A stretch of DNA of 64,000 bases from a virus (lineage: Duplodnaviria; Caudoviricetes): positions 1 to 64,000 of IMG/VR virus record IMGVR_UViG_3300014590_000001. One strand, written 5' to 3'. The position numbers and the translations under genes were made by a program. The notes under the pieces were generated by a model. The model was not told the origin of the DNA and made no database searches. It was given only the letters and a program-made list of their open reading frames with translations. Positions 12,337-56,210 of the stretch are shown here, one piece after another. Each line of letters begins with the position of its first letter. Position 1 is the stretch's first letter.

Positions 12337-12343
12337 CTAATTT
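12337..12343 (+). promoter_or_regulatory. Candidate late promoter core CTAATTT
   Basis: The same motif sits 30-45 nt upstream of start codons at 23412, 28963, 41810, 48288, 56181 and 60686. Confidence 0.55.
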
Positions 12344-44309: not shown

Positions 44310-46091
44310 ATGCCACTTCTTCCTAAACAATCTCGAATGATTTCGGATCTCGGAATTTTTCCGCGCTCGATTTCAAAAGTCGGTAATCATTTTATCGGAC
44401 ACAACAATCGCGCTGCCTATGTTTGGCACAAAGGCGATATTCAGGAAATTTGTCCGGGCGATATTGTCCACCACGAAAGTCTTAGCGCTTCAGTTGTTGA
44501 GCGTATTTCCGGCCTGAATTTTGCTGGCACTCGCGACGACAATAAAGCCGTGTTCATGTCTGTGAGTAACAGTCTCCATCTTGATCTGGTTCCTGAAAAA
44601 CAAGAATCCATTTCATACGATATGCAGACTGCTCTGCTTGCTGCGCAAGAGTATGCAAAGAACAATCAACGCATTCACGATATTCTGGATATGTGTTCAG
44701 AAAGTGCTGCGCCAAAGTATCTGAAGTACACCGGAAAGAAACTTGCTGTTGATGACGCTTCCGATGAATACGATCTGGAACTGGAGAAAGGCGACTTAAT
44801 CAAGCTGACCTATCTCAACAAAGACCGTTACGATCTGCGCCTGAAAGACAGTCCTCGCATTCAGTTTATTGTTCGCGGTCATGAAATTGCGCAGAACATT
44901 ATGGGTGCGCTGGAATTCACTGCGCCGTTCGGTCAAATCTCCGATCAGAAAACAAATAAGTTCGAATACGTTGGCGAAATCAGCAAGAAACTTCTCGCGC
45001 CAAATATTGCGAAAGGCACTGTTATTCTTATGTCGCGTAAGAAACATTACTTCGCACATAACCTCGCTGTGCCAATTGAAAGCTGGATGAATTCACAAAC
45101 TCTTCGCGAAGTTATGAATAGCATTAAAGCAGGTAAAGAGCCTGTGAGCTATGTGAAAGGTAAAGCGATCAAAACAAGCGCGAAGATTGCGCCGATGGGT
45201 CAGGCAGAACCTCTGCCGAAACTGGCTAATCCGAAAAAACTTTCGAGCGCAGGACAGCCGCGAAACGTTGCAACTGTTTACGGTGCATTCTTCCCTGTGT
45301 CGTCCAGTACGCCGAATCGTAGCCGTGTTGTTTTTGCTGACTCGATGGCAAAACTTCAGACGTTAGTGCGTGATATTATTTCGACGTACACTACTCCGGT
45401 AGACTACAGCCTGTTCACCACGTTAAGCACTGACGAAAACTATAAAGCTGCATCAAAGAATAAAGTTGTTATCAAAACAACTCCAATTCTTGCCAGCACG
45501 TATCACGTTACGCAGACAGTTAAAATGGCTCCTGCCGTGCTGCATCCAACTTTCGTTGAACCGAAAACTGGTGTGCGTCCTATCGACTTCCCTGTGTATG
45601 AAGGACAAGAGCAAAAGGTTATCGAATTCTTCCGTCGTCAAATCGAAGAAGGTTTCTTTAACACTGGCGTTCGTTTAGCACATCCGCAACCGGACACTGG
45701 AATTCGTTTTAGCGCTCCGCAGATTGATGACGTTATTTACGATCAGATTATCGGTGTTGCTCGTCGCATTACTTCTTTCTTGCTGCATGAAGGTGTGCCT
45801 TTGAAGAAAGGCGGCGTATCGTTAGCGCGTGGTAAGAAAGCCGCAGAGATTCGTTTTAATCTGCCACCTGTTACGGGCGAACAGAAAGCAAGTATCGAAA
45901 AACTTGTTTCGGATTACCCAACTCTGAATGCTCCTATCTATGAGACAATCAGACCGAAACAGCCAACGGTAGAAATTCTCAGTGTTTCTATCCACACTGG
46001 TAAAGTTACTGCTCGTGCGCAGCGTGGCCCAAGTCTGTTCGGCAATCCGTTCGAAGTTCTTTATTCGAATGTTAAGCGAAAAAATTTCTAA
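44310..46091 (+). CDS. Probable internal head protein with S-x-S-rich N-terminal region
   Basis: AAGGA RBS; ESLSA, MSVSN, ESISY, CSESA in the first ~135 aa, then the 'YLKYTG...EKGDLI' module. Confidence 0.55.
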   Translation: MPLLPKQSRMISDLGIFPRSISKVGNHFIGHNNRAAYVWHKGDIQEICPGDIVHHESLSASVVERISGLNFAGTRDDNKAVFMSVSNSLHLDLVPEKQESISYDMQTALLAAQEYAKNNQRIHDILDMCSESAAPKYLKYTGKKLAVDDASDEYDLELEKGDLIKLTYLNKDRYDLRLKDSPRIQFIVRGHEIAQNIMGALEFTAPFGQISDQKTNKFEYVGEISKKLLAPNIAKGTVILMSRKKHYFAHNLAVPIESWMNSQTLREVMNSIKAGKEPVSYVKGKAIKTSAKIAPMGQAEPLPKLANPKKLSSAGQPRNVATVYGAFFPVSSSTPNRSRVVFADSMAKLQTLVRDIISTYTTPVDYSLFTTLSTDENYKAASKNKVVIKTTPILASTYHVTQTVKMAPAVLHPTFVEPKTGVRPIDFPVYEGQEQKVIEFFRRQIEEGFFNTGVRLAHPQPDTGIRFSAPQIDDVIYDQIIGVARRITSFLLHEGVPLKKGGVSLARGKKAAEIRFNLPPVTGEQKASIEKLVSDYPTLNAPIYETIRPKQPTVEILSVSIHTGKVTARAQRGPSLFGNPFEVLYSNVKRKNF

Positions 46092-46095
46092 GTAA

Positions 46096-46107
46096 ATCTG
46101 TAAATAG
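46096..46107 (+). promoter_or_regulatory. Candidate promoter motif ATCTGTAAATAG
   Basis: Identical 12-mer at 47795-47806, each at the head of a structured non-coding block; ATCTGTAAAG variants at 46205 and 46649. Confidence 0.5.
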
Positions 46108-47330
46108 TAATTATAGGTAGAGCGGAAATTCTATGACTTCTTGTTTCCGTTCTACCATAGAACCCTAGCCAGTTGGATATAAAAACTTTCTGTGAAGAAA
46201 CGATATCTGTAAAGTGGGTAATAACACTGGCAGCCATTCCATGTATAAGGCTCACAAGCCGCTTCCTACCTACAGGGGAATGAGTTAATGCAATCCACCT
46301 CGCTCTGGCGATGCGTTAACTGTTAGCTGACAGCGCGAAAGAATGCCGTTTAAACTTACACTTTCACTGTGAGTTTAAACGGGGAATCTTTCAGAACTCC
46401 CTGTCAATATGACGACAAAGTTTGCAAATGTCTTGCTGCATTTTTCATAAACTATTTTCTACTCTAGCGGATTCGTAACGGGAAGTAGTTTAGCGAACTT
46501 TGGGAATACGATTTAGTGAGTAACATAACATCCGCAGAATGAAGATAGACCCGCCTTAGTCTAGGCTTCGTTCCCTAGTTTGTTTAGACCTGATTCAGTG
46601 GGGAAACGGGAAACGAACTTTGTATAGATTCCGTATAATCATTTTGAAATCTGTAAAGTGATTATACTGGATCACTGTGCTGTTCCGGTGTTCCGGTGGT
46701 GTTGTAGTTGTCGTTCATATCTGCGCCATTGTGTTGTGCTGACTAGCGGTTGGCGAAAGCACTTCACTTAAAGTTTTAAACATTCGCTGAAGTTATCGGT
46801 GTCTCAACCCCCGCAGACCGTGGATAGATTCCTGTTCAGAAAATTTATTTTTAGTTCTCGGATAAATTTTCCCAGCAGCCCTTGCTAGGCCACGTAGAGT
46901 AAGTAGTTTCAAACCTATTTGAAGTTGGGAACGGGGAAACGAAAACTCTTTAGTCAAAAGCTCTTACTGTTGCATGGCTTCTGTCAAAACAAAATCAGAT
47001 CTTCAATTCCATTATTGGATTCGAGTATCCCTAAGCGGTGACTTCCGTATTCGAATCTTGTTAGTAGGAAGTTTAAATGTGGGTGCCTTTAGGTTCCATA
47101 GGATACCGTTCACGGTAAACAAATAACAGCCGCAGACCAAAGATCATGACTGCAATTTATGTTCTCCATAGCATAACTTTTGCGATACTCCTATGAGGCT
47201 TTGTTTTGAAACTTTTTAGACCTGCTTCAGTTGGGAATCGGGAAGAAGTTTCAAATTGTCGGACGAGATTGGAAAGACAACTCGTATTACGTTTTCCTCT
47301 CACATTAGCGTAATACGGGATGACACCAAT
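46108..47330 (+). ncRNA. Large structured non-coding RNA/leader containing three tandem pseudoknotted units
   Basis: 1.25 kb with no credible ORF in a gene-dense genome; many long stems whose mismatches are G.U on the + strand; conserved CTA(A)GCGG, CCGCAGA, AGGC, A[G/A]ACCT and GT[T/G]GGGAA(N)CGGG repeated three times. Confidence 0.7.
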
Positions 47331-47343
47331 TTGAGGAAACATC

Positions 47344-47601
47344 ATGTCGGGAAAAGATTTGGAATTTCCAAAAGGCGCACAAGGCGTAGTGCGCAAAGTA
47401 AATCCATTGACAACGTTCTTCATGCCTGAACGTTATCGTGATAACCCAGCGAAAGCTAAAGTTGCAGCGCAGTTTCAAACTCTCGCGTATGCTCTTGACC
47501 GCGATATTGAAGACAGCGCAGAAAAGAGTACAGCGATTCGCAAACTGATTGAAGCGCAAGATTGTATTTTCCGCGCAATCGATCTTAATCCTGATTTCTA
47601 A
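47344..47601 (+). CDS. Acb2/Tad1-like helical-hairpin protein (candidate immune-signal sponge)
   Basis: GAGGAAA RBS; 85 aa; 'P..FF....','F..LA..L','EKSTAIRKLIEAQDC..RAI...PDF' resembles the Acb2-family C-terminal helix (recalled, not searched). Confidence 0.6.
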   Translation: MSGKDLEFPKGAQGVVRKVNPLTTFFMPERYRDNPAKAKVAAQFQTLAYALDRDIEDSAEKSTAIRKLIEAQDCIFRAIDLNPDF

Positions 47602-47602
47602 A

Positions 47603-47776
47603 ATGCGCGAACCGCTCGAATATATTGATGTTGTAGTTGATACTGAGCGTATGAACGAGGCAATTAAATCTCCTTCATATAGTTTTCCACGAAGTTTAAC
47701 TCGCGAAGAAGTTTTGCAGTTTCTCGATGGACGAGCGCCTGTAAAAATTCTTACGCAGGAGAATAAAAATGCGTGA
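47603..47776 (+). CDS. Small hypothetical protein (57 aa)
   Basis: ATG one base after the previous stop; MREPLEYIDVVVDTERMNEAIKSPSYSFPRSLTREEVLQFL. Confidence 0.55.
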   Translation: MREPLEYIDVVVDTERMNEAIKSPSYSFPRSLTREEVLQFLDGRAPVKILTQENKNA

Positions 47777-47806
47777 TTGGTTTTACGGCGGTTAATCTGT
47801 AAATAG

Positions 47807-48277
47807 AATTTGTGGTAACACAAATAGGCATAAGGAACTCTGAGAGTGAAAGAACTCTATCTTCTTATGTCGCTACTGATGTGCTTGTGGCAAGCGAGTA
47901 GATCAGGCATTGTAAAACAATGTGCGAGCACACCGGAAACGCTCGCGTCCAGCACTGCCGTGGTGTACGGCTATGCGCACGTTCGGGGGATGTGGGACAG
48001 CGACAAACACTTGCCAAGATGAAAATTTAAATTTGATTGCGGTACTGGCGGGTAACTCCGCTTATTCGGACAAGCAAAATTTCAGACGTGAGATTTTGTG
48101 CCGCCTCCAAATGGCGCGGCGATTCTGTCGGATGCAACACGGCGAACAACTGCTTTTCTTTGCCCAAGCTATATACCGATTGCTGCGCCGTTATTCTATA
48201 GGCTGCGCGTCAAACCTTTTAAAATCCGCATGAAAAATTTGATACGAAAACGGGTGGCCTTTGTGCTGCCCGTTTTT
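47807..48277 (+). ncRNA. Second structured non-coding RNA (~470 nt)
   Basis: Starts right after ATCTGTAAATAG, ends in a terminator; near-continuous series of hairpins; overlapping ORFs lack an RBS. Confidence 0.65.
48247..48277 (+). terminator. Rho-independent terminator
   Basis: AAAACGGGTGGC-ctttgt-GCTGCCCGTTTTT. Confidence 0.85.
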
Positions 48278-48317
48278 GTTTCTGCCACTAATTTAACCAA
48301 TAAGAAAGGAGAATAAA

Positions 48318-48608
48318 ATGGGCAAACCTGTCATTCGATTGGGCGCTGATTTAACTACAGGTCACAACGGTTATCCTCCGGTAGTGGCAACTGGCGCAAG
48401 TGGGAATGTTTTTGTGAATGGTAAGGGCGTTGTTCGTACTGGCGATCCTTATCAACCGCATAAAAAGAAAAAGAAACCGTCACACATAGGTCACGCTATT
48501 GGCGGTGCAACTGTATTCGTGAATGGTAAACCTGCACAACGCGCAGGTGATGCAAATGATTGTGGCGATACTGCTTCAAACGGATCGCAAAACGTAGGAT
48601 TTGGCTGA
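48318..48608 (+). CDS. PAAR-domain spike tip protein
   Basis: 'TTGH..YPP', 'NVFVNGK.VVR.GD....H', 'VFVNGKPAQR.GD...CG'. Confidence 0.92.
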   Translation: MGKPVIRLGADLTTGHNGYPPVVATGASGNVFVNGKGVVRTGDPYQPHKKKKKPSHIGHAIGGATVFVNGKPAQRAGDANDCGDTASNGSQNVGFG

Positions 48609-49021
48609 TGGCAATTATCTCTAAACGTGTTGATGTGCCAGCTAACGAAGCTGTCTATTCAGATATCAGTATGGATATCAAAATGGAATTGCGTGATACC
48701 GTTCAGGATATGGATGCTATCACTCAAAAGATTTTATTTATAATCGGCACTCGCAAAGGCTCCCGCAAATATCGTGAGAAGTTTGGCTCGGACGTGTATA
48801 GAGATTTATTCGAACCTTTCGACGATAGCACCGCAGGATGGATTGAGACTCATATTACGAACGCATTGGAAGATGTTGATAACGGTCTGACTGCCGATGT
48901 GACAGACGTTAAAGTATCCGTGTATCGTTCCGTGAATCAAACGTATGAGTGTTCTGTTATGTGGAAAGTTCCAAAACTTCTCGAAAAGAACTCCGTTAAT
49001 TTCGCCTTGAGGCCATTATGA
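48608..49021 (+). CDS. Baseplate wedge gp25/gpW-like protein
   Basis: 'YSDI', 'I..I..IIGTRKG.R..R..FGS.V...LFEP.D'. Confidence 0.85.
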   Translation: MAIISKRVDVPANEAVYSDISMDIKMELRDTVQDMDAITQKILFIIGTRKGSRKYREKFGSDVYRDLFEPFDDSTAGWIETHITNALEDVDNGLTADVTDVKVSVYRSVNQTYECSVMWKVPKLLEKNSVNFALRPL

Positions 49022-56135: not shown

Positions 56136-56160
56136 GGGTGGCCTTTTGGCTGCCCTTTTT
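56136..56160 (+). terminator. Rho-independent terminator
   Basis: GGGTGGCC-tttt-GGCTGCCC-TTTTT. Confidence 0.85.
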
Positions 56161-56210
56161 CTTTTCTGTACTGCATAACACTAATTTTAAAGGACTAATC
56201 CAAAGGAGTA

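Follow-up and report, generated by a model that had tools for sequence, protein, structure and literature searches.

A conserved pseudoknotted RNA fold with an internal small open reading frame upstream of the PAAR gene in Salmondvirus-like and related jumbo phages

Location, boundaries, and folding of the unit

The DNA examined here (the window) is a 64,000-nucleotide (nt) stretch from the start of IMG/VR record IMGVR_UViG_3300014590_000001, a jumbo-phage sequence of 256,657 bp that has terminal repeats. All long genes of the window lie on the + strand. Positions 47807-48277 form a unit between a 57-amino-acid (aa) open reading frame (ORF; 47603-47776) and the PAAR spike-tip gene (48318-48608; PF05488), and in every lineage compared the unit lies directly 5′ of the PAAR gene. 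The closest deposited relatives of this phage are Dickeya phages JA29, JA11, JA13, and JA33 (Salmondvirus). Remoter relatives include Erwinia phages Y3, Alexandra, Yoloswag, and the pEa_SNUABM series, Dickeya phage AD1, and Yersinia phage fHe-Yen9-02. The corresponding space in JA29, JA13, and JA11 holds no annotated feature. Our data support the unit as a structured + strand RNA that is conserved, expressed, and outside the catalogued RNA families. It is probably an mRNA for a small peptide, structured and translationally gated, or else a dual-function RNA; its 3′ domain is non-coding and variable.

The initial annotation of this locus had described an independent, non-coding RNA of ~470 nt with its own promoter and terminator. 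Comparison across genera bore out both boundary signals. The promoter-class motif TCTGTAAATAG (47796-47806, + strand), one of an [A/T]CTGTAAA class, recurs at the equivalent place in JA13, Yoloswag, and relatives L014 and L022. The intrinsic terminator (48247-48277, + strand), a stem (48250-58/48265-73) followed by a T run, appears in both the minimum free energy (MFE) and consensus folds and is kept in every relative, across genera, with G-U/G-C swaps. A near-identical hairpin (GGGTGGCC-loop-GGCTGCCC) is shared by terminators at 56140-56165 and 48252-48276 and is also kept in Erwinia phages of other genera.

The 256.7-kb genome contains 52 copies of [A/T]CTGTAAA, of which 20 are strictly intergenic, against ~11% non-coding DNA. 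Around nine further copies have an ORF end no more than 25 nt away. A co-oriented start codon typically lies 30-75 nt 3′ of the strictly intergenic copies, and copies of the motif often come after a terminator. Within the 64-kb structural-gene block, only four copies lie outside ORFs (46097, 46206, 46650, and 47796), all in the RNA island to which the unit belongs. The promoter class of the island therefore differs from that of the surrounding tail genes. A sigma-70 reading of the same region (TTTACG-16-TAGAAT) was rejected, as Yoloswag has its -35-like hexamer displaced by 3 nt while TCTGTAAA is fixed.

Folding of the unit surpassed that of shuffled sequences on the + strand only. The + strand reached -167.4 kcal/mol (z = -5.21), with none of 100 shuffles as good, compared with z = -1.27 for the − strand. 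With the terminator left out (47807-48245), the + strand still scored z = -4.56. The 5′ part (47807-48022) gave z = -4.7 and the 3′ part (48023-48245) z = -3.05, while the − strand of these parts was weak or near zero (z = -0.44 for the 3′ part). Such asymmetry is expected where G-U pairs matter. For reference, 36 coding control windows of 216 nt, taken from long genes of the same phage, averaged z = -0.97 (sd 1.43).

With one change of register, the stems listed in the initial annotation are present in the sequence, and nearly all were recovered in the MFE fold and the consensus folds, the latter built from the window, Dickeya phages JA29 and JA13, and an IMG/VR relative. Those recovered were ATTTGTG/CACAAAT (47808-25), GGCATAAG/CTTATGTC (47827-71), CATTGT/ACAATG (47908-22), GCGAGC/GCTCGC (47924-46), GTCC/GGAC (47947-98) enclosing GCCGT/ACGGC and CACGTTC/GGATGTG, CAAAATTTC/GAGATTTTG (48075-98), and TGCGG/CCGCA (48038/48226). 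The hairpin proposed at 47873-47901 exists, but not in the CTACT/AGTAG register. Covariation instead backs CTGAT.../...ATCAG (47876-87/47895-906), where a G-C pair becomes A-U in JA13 and L014 and the 7-nt loop reads TGGCAAG.

A conserved pseudoknotted core with compensatory changes

Positions 47827-48016 are the local version of a ~200-nt pseudoknotted fold found 5′ of the PAAR/baseplate operon in Salmondvirus-, Yoloswag-, and Y3/Alexandra-type phages and in Yersinia jumbo phages. A 5′ hairpin, P0 (ATTTGTG GTAA CACAAAT; 47808-47825, + strand; MFE fold), precedes this core, and its place is taken by a hairpin of different sequence in JA13, L014, Yoloswag, L022, and the Yersinia phage. Hairpin P1 (47827-35 with 47863-71) then begins the core in the consensus fold. 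Its 10 consensus pairs include four one-sided changes, with pairing kept in all. P1 encloses the Shine-Dalgarno (SD) sequence AAGGA (47832-36), and its inner stem pairs the first G of a GTG start codon (47846). Prediction and comparison indicate that P1 pairs the SD in all four Salmondvirus-type sequences, and the Y3/Alexandra clade has an equivalent SD-sequestering hairpin, AGGAGCAAA/UUUGUUCUU.

The multi-helix junction of the MFE fold is closed by a long-range helix, P-LR (UGUCGCU/AGCGACA; 47868-74 with 47999-48005). This duplex was present in 18 of 18 homologs tested, with both strands changing between clades (e.g. GUGUCGUU/AACGACAC, UGUCGUUG/CAACGACA, and GUCGCUCG/CGAGCGAC). Hairpin H1 of the consensus fold (47876-87 with 47895-906; loop UGGCAAG, 47888-94) has five pairs changed on both sides (consensus pairs 75-87/93-105). 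Three further elements occur in both the MFE and consensus folds: hairpin H2a (47907-13/47917-23), hairpin H2b (GCGAGC/GCUCGC; 47924-29/47941-46), and the branched helix H3 (GUCC/GGAC; 47947-50 with 47995-98), which holds H3a (GCCGU/ACGGC) and H3b (CACGUUC/GGAUGUG). In L014, H2b reads GUGGCG/UGCCAC, a change of three compensatory pairs while the encoded residues differ, and H3a reads GUCGC/GCGAC. The same branched H3 element in the Y3/Alexandra clade shows 10 compensatory pairs.

The pseudoknot forms between the H1 loop and CUUGCCA (48010-48016, + strand), a long-range option that the initial annotation had already raised. Within the Salmondvirus group, neither strand varies. In the Y3/Alexandra clade and the Yersinia phage, the H1 loop carries GCUUGG and the 3′ strand reads CCAAGC, so that a different complementary pair occupies the same two positions.

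Pairing is thus conserved with compensatory changes across clades. In the Salmondvirus group, 12 of the 65 consensus pairs are compensatory, and the Yoloswag group has 15 compensatory pairs. Ten sequences of the Y3/Alexandra clade gave 74 pairs, the pseudoknot counted, with 92.2% of cells paired overall and 100% at the pseudoknot. When partners were slid by 1-3 columns as a control, only 40-48% of cells were paired. Compensatory pairs numbered 26 in this clade versus 1-9 when slid, and none of 500 shuffles matched.

A covariance model built solely from Y3/Alexandra-clade copies (Erwinia phages and metagenomes) found the Yoloswag-type copies with E-values of 1e-11 to 1e-15. Given positions 47780-48045 alone, the model aligned 47830-48039 with 21.3 bits (E = 7e-8 for that 266-nt stretch), placing P1, P-LR, H3, H3a, and H3b in register. 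Over the whole window, it aligned the terminator side of the unit (48128-48282) because a 215-nt insert splits the unit.

A small ORF spanning the core

The initial annotation had taken the entire ~470 nt to be non-coding. Instead, the 5′ 215 nt hold a ribosome-binding site and a conserved ORF of 58 aa (47846-48022, + strand; GTG start, TGA stop), with an N-terminal hydrophobic segment and a C-terminal AHVRGMWD. A profile of four Salmondvirus sequences matched annotated small coding sequences in Yoloswag and SNUABM_5, and two relatives carry the ORF as a hypothetical protein (YOLOSWAG_108 and pEaSNUABM5_00115). All 19 relatives have a homologous ORF of 47-78 aa; among them are IMG/VR, JGI, and Logan contigs and the Yersinia phage.

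All 19 sequences are free of stops in frame 0, while the other two frames contain 62 and 33. In nearly all homologs, the start codon lies at an equivalent place with an AGGAG/AAGGA-like motif 6-10 nt 5′. Indels inside the frame are either 15 nt or three single bases summing to 3. Hydropathy of the N-terminal 17 aa (Kyte-Doolittle) is 1.8-3.0 in all homologs but the copy in the window. Reading frame, start, and hydrophobic N-terminus are therefore kept across four or five phage lineages, and we infer that the ORF is translated.

Database searches placed this peptide in no named family. The 58-aa peptide had no match in Pfam, PHROGs, or NCBIfam, and no usable match in the protein atlas; Pfam and NCBIfam scans of 14 family members returned nothing relevant. 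A search of 5.8 billion proteins yielded 20 relatives or clusters, all from related phage contigs and none functionally named.

Substitution patterns differed sharply between the ORF and the neighboring, essential PAAR gene. Between the window and JA29, substitutions at the three codon positions numbered 13/8/14 in the ORF, without third-position bias, and 14/15/38 in PAAR. For the same phage pairs, dN/dS was 0.3-1.5 in the ORF and 0.03-0.17 in PAAR. Synonymous divergence was 2-8 times lower in the ORF than in PAAR, with dS of 0.27 versus 0.90 (window/JA29), 0.21 versus 1.74 (SNUABM_22/Alexandra), and 0.17 versus 0.86 in another pair. Helices H2b and H3a are kept from the window to L014 despite changes in the residues encoded there. 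Three lineages share the C-terminal motif AHVRGMW. Others have H[SL][LH]R[VA]-stop instead, and the switch separates even close relatives (P0005 and P0007); it results from a different frame being used over the same conserved nucleotides.

These data suggest that selection acts mainly on the RNA fold, while the peptide sequence drifts almost neutrally. The initial annotation had set conservation of a reading frame against conservation of pairing; we found frame and pairing each conserved. Both layers of constraint are real, with the fold under strong selection and the frame kept translatable.

The substitution data also bear on two other explanations. In the first, the unit is a pure non-coding structured RNA whose frame is untranslated and stays open through structural constraint and shared ancestry. 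This would account for dN/dS of 0.3-1.5, the even spread of differences over codon positions, and synonymous sites more constrained than in the neighboring gene. It also fits a C-terminal motif that changes by frame over the same conserved nucleotides, the weak hydrophobicity of the peptide in the window, and the lack of protein family matches. However, it must explain the absence of frame-0 stops from 19 sequences that span four or more strongly diverged lineages, compared with 95 in the other frames, and a start codon preceded at 6-10 nt by an SD-like motif in nearly all homologs. A hydrophobic N-terminus that persists despite differing nucleotides between clades, and indels of 15 nt or single bases summing to 3, also speak for a translated frame. 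We consider an untranslated frame rather unlikely.

The second explanation is an ordinary small protein gene with incidental structure. Two relatives do annotate a hypothetical protein here, and one coding control window folded with a comparable z-score. This explanation is already contradicted by the covariation and substitution data, namely 26 and 12 compensatory pairs in two clades, suppressed dS with dN/dS near 1, and helices kept while encoded residues change, and we find it barely credible. A structured mRNA in which fold and frame are both maintained, possibly with a second function for the RNA, better describes the core.

A lineage-variable 3′ domain

Downstream of the ORF, positions 48023-48245 (+ strand) form a lineage-specific structured non-coding domain, closed by 48027-34/48235-42 and UGCGG/CCGCA (48038-42/48226-30). 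In a consensus of three Salmondvirus phages, almost all of ~70 predicted pairs are kept, with two compensatory changes, ~14 one-sided compatible changes, and ~5 broken pairs. At 48028, the T of the window is a C in JA13, L014, and two environmental relatives, which converts a U-G pair in the closing helix to C-G. A 103-aa GTG frame (47922-48233) and other frames in this domain were rejected as coding, given stops in JA29 and indels of 1, 2, 4, and 7 nt in JA13.

Content at this place varies widely. Between the same closing helix, L014 carries a different segment of ~150 nt. The intervening sequence is again different in Yoloswag-type phages (155-190 nt) and in the Yersinia phage (~255 nt). In Y3/Alexandra-type phages the 3′ domain is absent, and the ORF stop lies ~35 nt from the terminator. 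On the + strand, the domains of other lineages scored z = -3.0 (L014), -3.1 (Yoloswag), -1.7 (SNUABM_5), and +0.6 (Yersinia phage). Those near -3 folded well on that strand alone. We read the 3′ ~225 nt as a probable accessory, fast-changing domain at a permissive site between pseudoknot and terminator.

Expression and separation from the baseplate operon

Parts of the stretch were found in 20 public runs (X1-X20), so that environmental relatives are numerous. One of these runs, X17, is a seed metatranscriptome and contains a relative that is ~93% identical. Its contigs had depths of 149x (46100-46634), 278x (46783-47242), and 120x (47268-48144), compared with 4-6x over the upstream gene and 5.3x over 48247-48655. 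Depth thus fell ~20-fold, from 120x to 5.3x, between 48144 and 48247. The most abundant part of the island was the gene-free upstream array (46100-47242), and the first contig starts inside the first TCTGTAAATAG motif (46100). This contrast fits strong transcription of the island with termination before PAAR and is hard to reconcile with contaminating DNA.

Contigs from X6 and X7 start at 47992 and 47995, respectively, and cover only the 3′ domain at depths of 2-7. They give a weak hint of a processed 3′ fragment, with the caveat that these contig starts, like the end of the X17 contig at 48144, cannot be read as RNA ends. X7 lacked cover over 47214-47920, which is not readable as absence, and an X6 contig runs 22 nt past the terminator.

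Beyond the terminator, the spacer GTTTCTGCCACTAATTTAACC and the PAAR SD (48278-48317, + strand) are invariant in the Salmondvirus group and recognizable in all clades. This spacer includes CTAATTTA (48288-95, + strand), a candidate late promoter of the baseplate operon that is conserved and preceded by GTTTCTG. CTAATTT(A/T) also lies 5′ of other structural genes at 12337 and ~56185 in the window and at 70231 and 85375 in the genome. It occurs 25-40 nt 5′ of structural-gene start codons, twice immediately after a terminator. We propose CTAATTT(A/T) as a candidate late-promoter motif of this phage group. Since it is conserved 3′ of the terminator and before other structural genes, the baseplate operon likely has its own promoter, with the unit as a separate cassette.

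The position of the unit raises the alternative of a cis-acting leader or attenuator, in which translation of the ORF would remodel the fold and set read-through into PAAR and the downstream genes. Placement directly 5′ of PAAR in every lineage, the short distance from stop codon to terminator in Y3/Alexandra-type phages, and the X6 contig extending beyond the terminator are all compatible with such control. However, CTAATTT(A) between terminator and PAAR suggests that the operon has its own promoter, and ORF and terminator are uncoupled by 150-225 nt of unrelated sequence in Salmondvirus- and Yoloswag-type phages and ~255 nt in the Yersinia phage. RNA depth is also ~20-fold lower across the terminator, and we saw no alternative anti-terminator pairing. 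Attenuation is therefore a very unlikely role for the unit, and we continue to favor a small-peptide mRNA or dual-function RNA.

Proposed mechanism and points against it

Under the reading we favor, the unit would be one transcription unit of a Salmondvirus-like jumbo phage, running from the promoter motif (47796-47806) to the terminator (48247-48277) through a 5′ hairpin, a structured core with the small ORF, and a variable structured 3′ extension. In the fold, P-LR closes the junction of H1, H2a, H2b, and H3, and the H1 loop pairs just 3′ of this junction to form the pseudoknot. P1 would bury the ribosome-binding site, such that initiation could occur only once P1 opens, and translation would then unwind the whole fold. 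The product would be a small membrane-active peptide made from a stable, abundant mRNA. Type I toxin mRNAs share such a design, as do dual-function RNAs, RNAIII among them.

Several observations weigh against this reading. A dN/dS near 1 is also expected from an untranslated frame, and the case for translation derives from sequence comparison. The peptide in the window is the least hydrophobic of its family (1.19) and starts with GTG, where the Erwinia-phage copies have ATG. Among the coding control windows, one of 36 reached the z-score of the 5′ part (-4.7) and two of 36 that of the 3′ part (-3.05). The thermodynamic signal is thus strong yet not unique, and the structural case therefore rests on comparison. 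In the window, complete P1 and complete P-LR would need the same four bases (47868-71). In full-length form the two therefore exclude each other, and they may represent alternative conformations. The expression data come from assembled contigs of a relative and carry no strand, end, or per-base depth information. Moreover, the 120x contig also spans the Acb2-like gene and the 57-aa ORF. Read-through from upstream promoters is therefore likely, and the transcript may not be a discrete 470-nt species. The independence ascribed to the unit in the initial annotation is accordingly borne out only in part: the unit has its own promoter motif, but the RNA contig of the relative is continuous from the upstream genes into the unit. 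Finally, neither the − strand of the unit nor a genome complementarity search yielded an antisense or trans-acting partner.

Comparison with known RNA and toxin families

No catalogued RNA family could be assigned to the unit. The whole window gave no match to Rfam 15 at gathering thresholds, and relaxing the E-value to 10 for 46000-48400 gave only five chance-level matches to unrelated families. ARAGORN detected no tRNA or tmRNA in 45500-49000, in agreement with the initial annotation. Proteo-phage-1 (RF03044) was also rejected, as its sole match in the 256.7-kb genome (46163-46235; 16 bits, E = 0.32) lies outside the unit.

A resemblance to GOLLD (RF01998) and ROOL (RF03087) had been suggested. 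The unit shares with these RNAs a phage context, a length of several hundred nt, many helices, a pseudoknot, and an unknown function. However, neither model matched in these Rfam searches, and GOLLD and ROOL are non-coding RNAs of 580-800 nt, while the unit has a ~200-nt conserved core with an ORF and an otherwise lineage-variable sequence. The frame of 47-78 codons conserved in 19 of 19 homologs is at odds with a non-coding class, and we rejected both assignments.

The upstream RNA array (46092-47340) resembles the unit in its island, its promoter motif class, and its abundant expression in X17. Comparison of the two revealed no common repeat except the promoter motif.

Type I toxin mRNAs (hok/sok, tisB/istR, fst, and txpA/ratA) offer a closer likeness in design. 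They too encode peptides of <60 aa with an N-terminal hydrophobic helix on compact, highly structured mRNAs of 300-500 nt that have their own promoter and terminator, a locally sequestered ribosome-binding site, and a coding region closed by long-range pairing. Type I systems are defined in PMC2887945, and the small hydrophobic peptide and structured mRNA of the unit fit that definition. The peptides of this family measure 47-78 aa, with a best 17-aa hydropathy of 1.8-3.0 in the relatives and 1.19 in the window, and prediction and comparison point to a structured mRNA with an occluded ribosome-binding site. The differences are that the peptide has no sequence relation to a known toxin family and evolves almost neutrally, that the unit is carried by a lytic jumbo phage beside baseplate genes, and that no antitoxin RNA was found.

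A complete type I toxin-antitoxin-like module would consist of a membrane-damaging toxin, encoded by a silent mRNA, and an RNA antitoxin that is either antisense or derived from the upstream array. The hydrophobic peptide of <60 aa, the SD buried in a hairpin, and a compact, abundant, long-lived-looking mRNA with its own promoter and terminator would all suit such a module. Several results oppose it. Neither Pfam and NCBIfam scans of 14 family members nor a PHROGs search with the peptide of the window matched a toxin family (Hok, Ldr, Ibs, TisB, Fst, or similar models in Pfam and NCBIfam), and no Rfam antitoxin small RNA family was detected. The − strand of the unit has no phage promoter motif, and its sigma-70-like and terminator-like sites are no commoner than in shuffles. 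Three perfect 14-nt complementarities to the + strand sequence elsewhere in the genome (80398, 185925, and 228806) were rejected as trans targets. All lie inside coding regions, one of them on the non-transcribed strand, and ~0.5 are expected by chance. A strictly lytic jumbo phage also provides no obvious rationale for a toxin-antitoxin pair. We regard a true type I module as distinctly improbable, and a gated peptide mRNA that borrows elements of this design remains the interpretation we prefer.

Dual-function RNAs provide the other point of comparison. The class includes S. aureus RNAIII/delta-haemolysin, SgrS/SgrT, and SR1/SR1P of B. subtilis (PMC8501984). Like the unit, these are abundant, multi-hairpin RNAs of ~200-500 nt that encode a small peptide in one part and have non-coding structured domains 3′ of the ORF. 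In contrast, their ORF is a small separate part, whereas here it spans the entire conserved fold. For the unit, there is sequence evidence of both coding and RNA-level constraint, and a target-pairing or regulatory role would be putative.

A broader reading can be offered only tentatively. The unit might belong to a new phage RNA class, in which a pseudoknotted multi-helix fold is the selected feature and an ORF running through the whole fold acts as a translation-operated switch or yields a co-product. In this scheme, the unit would be the 3′-terminal member of an abundant RNA island, made up of tandem modules, the Acb2-like gene, and the unit, which is driven by non-late promoters situated among the clustered tail genes of jumbo phages of Erwinia, Dickeya, and Yersinia and might serve host takeover or counter-defense.

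The unit and its upstream modules constitute the most abundant phage RNA seen in an environmental metatranscriptome, yet each deposited genome that we examined either leaves the 2-kb island unannotated or annotates only pieces of it. The unit is also a clear natural case in which RNA structure, rather than protein sequence, dominates the evolution of an ORF. Such regions mislead gene finders and non-coding RNA finders alike. Jumbo phages of plant-pathogen hosts (Erwinia and Dickeya) are under development for biocontrol. If the peptide is membrane-active and its translation gated by the fold, a lytic phage would carry a device resembling a type I toxin or RNAIII, giving a handle on how the phage times a host-membrane event. 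If the RNA acts alone, it would represent a new conserved RNA family.

Neighboring genes

A mini-ORF encoding MRDWFYGG (47769-47795, + strand) connects the 57-aa ORF to the unit. The ATG of the mini-ORF overlaps the stop codon (TGA) of the 57-aa ORF, and its own stop codon (TAA) lies directly against the promoter motif. A peptide of the form M-x-DWF[YFW].. also precedes the unit in JA29/JA13, Yoloswag, SNUABM_5, L022, and L077. The DWF[YFW] core is kept in Salmondvirus- and Yoloswag-type phages, even in L077, where the promoter motif is missing. In L014, the peptide is fused to the upstream ORF as its C-terminus. Given this fusion, a frameshift product, a coupled mini-gene, and a leader peptide are all candidate identities for the mini-ORF.

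On the other side of the unit, an extra ORF of ~40 aa (MTRL[ST][ED]LAK..) lies between the terminator and PAAR in L008 (6787-6915), L010 (7089-7214), L022, and L074 (~868-990). It is absent from the window.

The 85-aa ORF at 47344-47601 matches the Acb2/Tad1 hairpin domain below threshold (PF24729, E = 0.019), as well as PHROGs 5120 and 1761, both of unknown function. At the start of this ORF, the X17 relative has 74 other letters in place of 32 nt (47339-47370). Upstream of the island, a 593-aa protein (44310-46091) contains a KMPT-N domain (PF20294, E = 2e-12) and matches PHROG 32352. The order of this gene, the RNA island, and PAAR is kept in 57 phage records.

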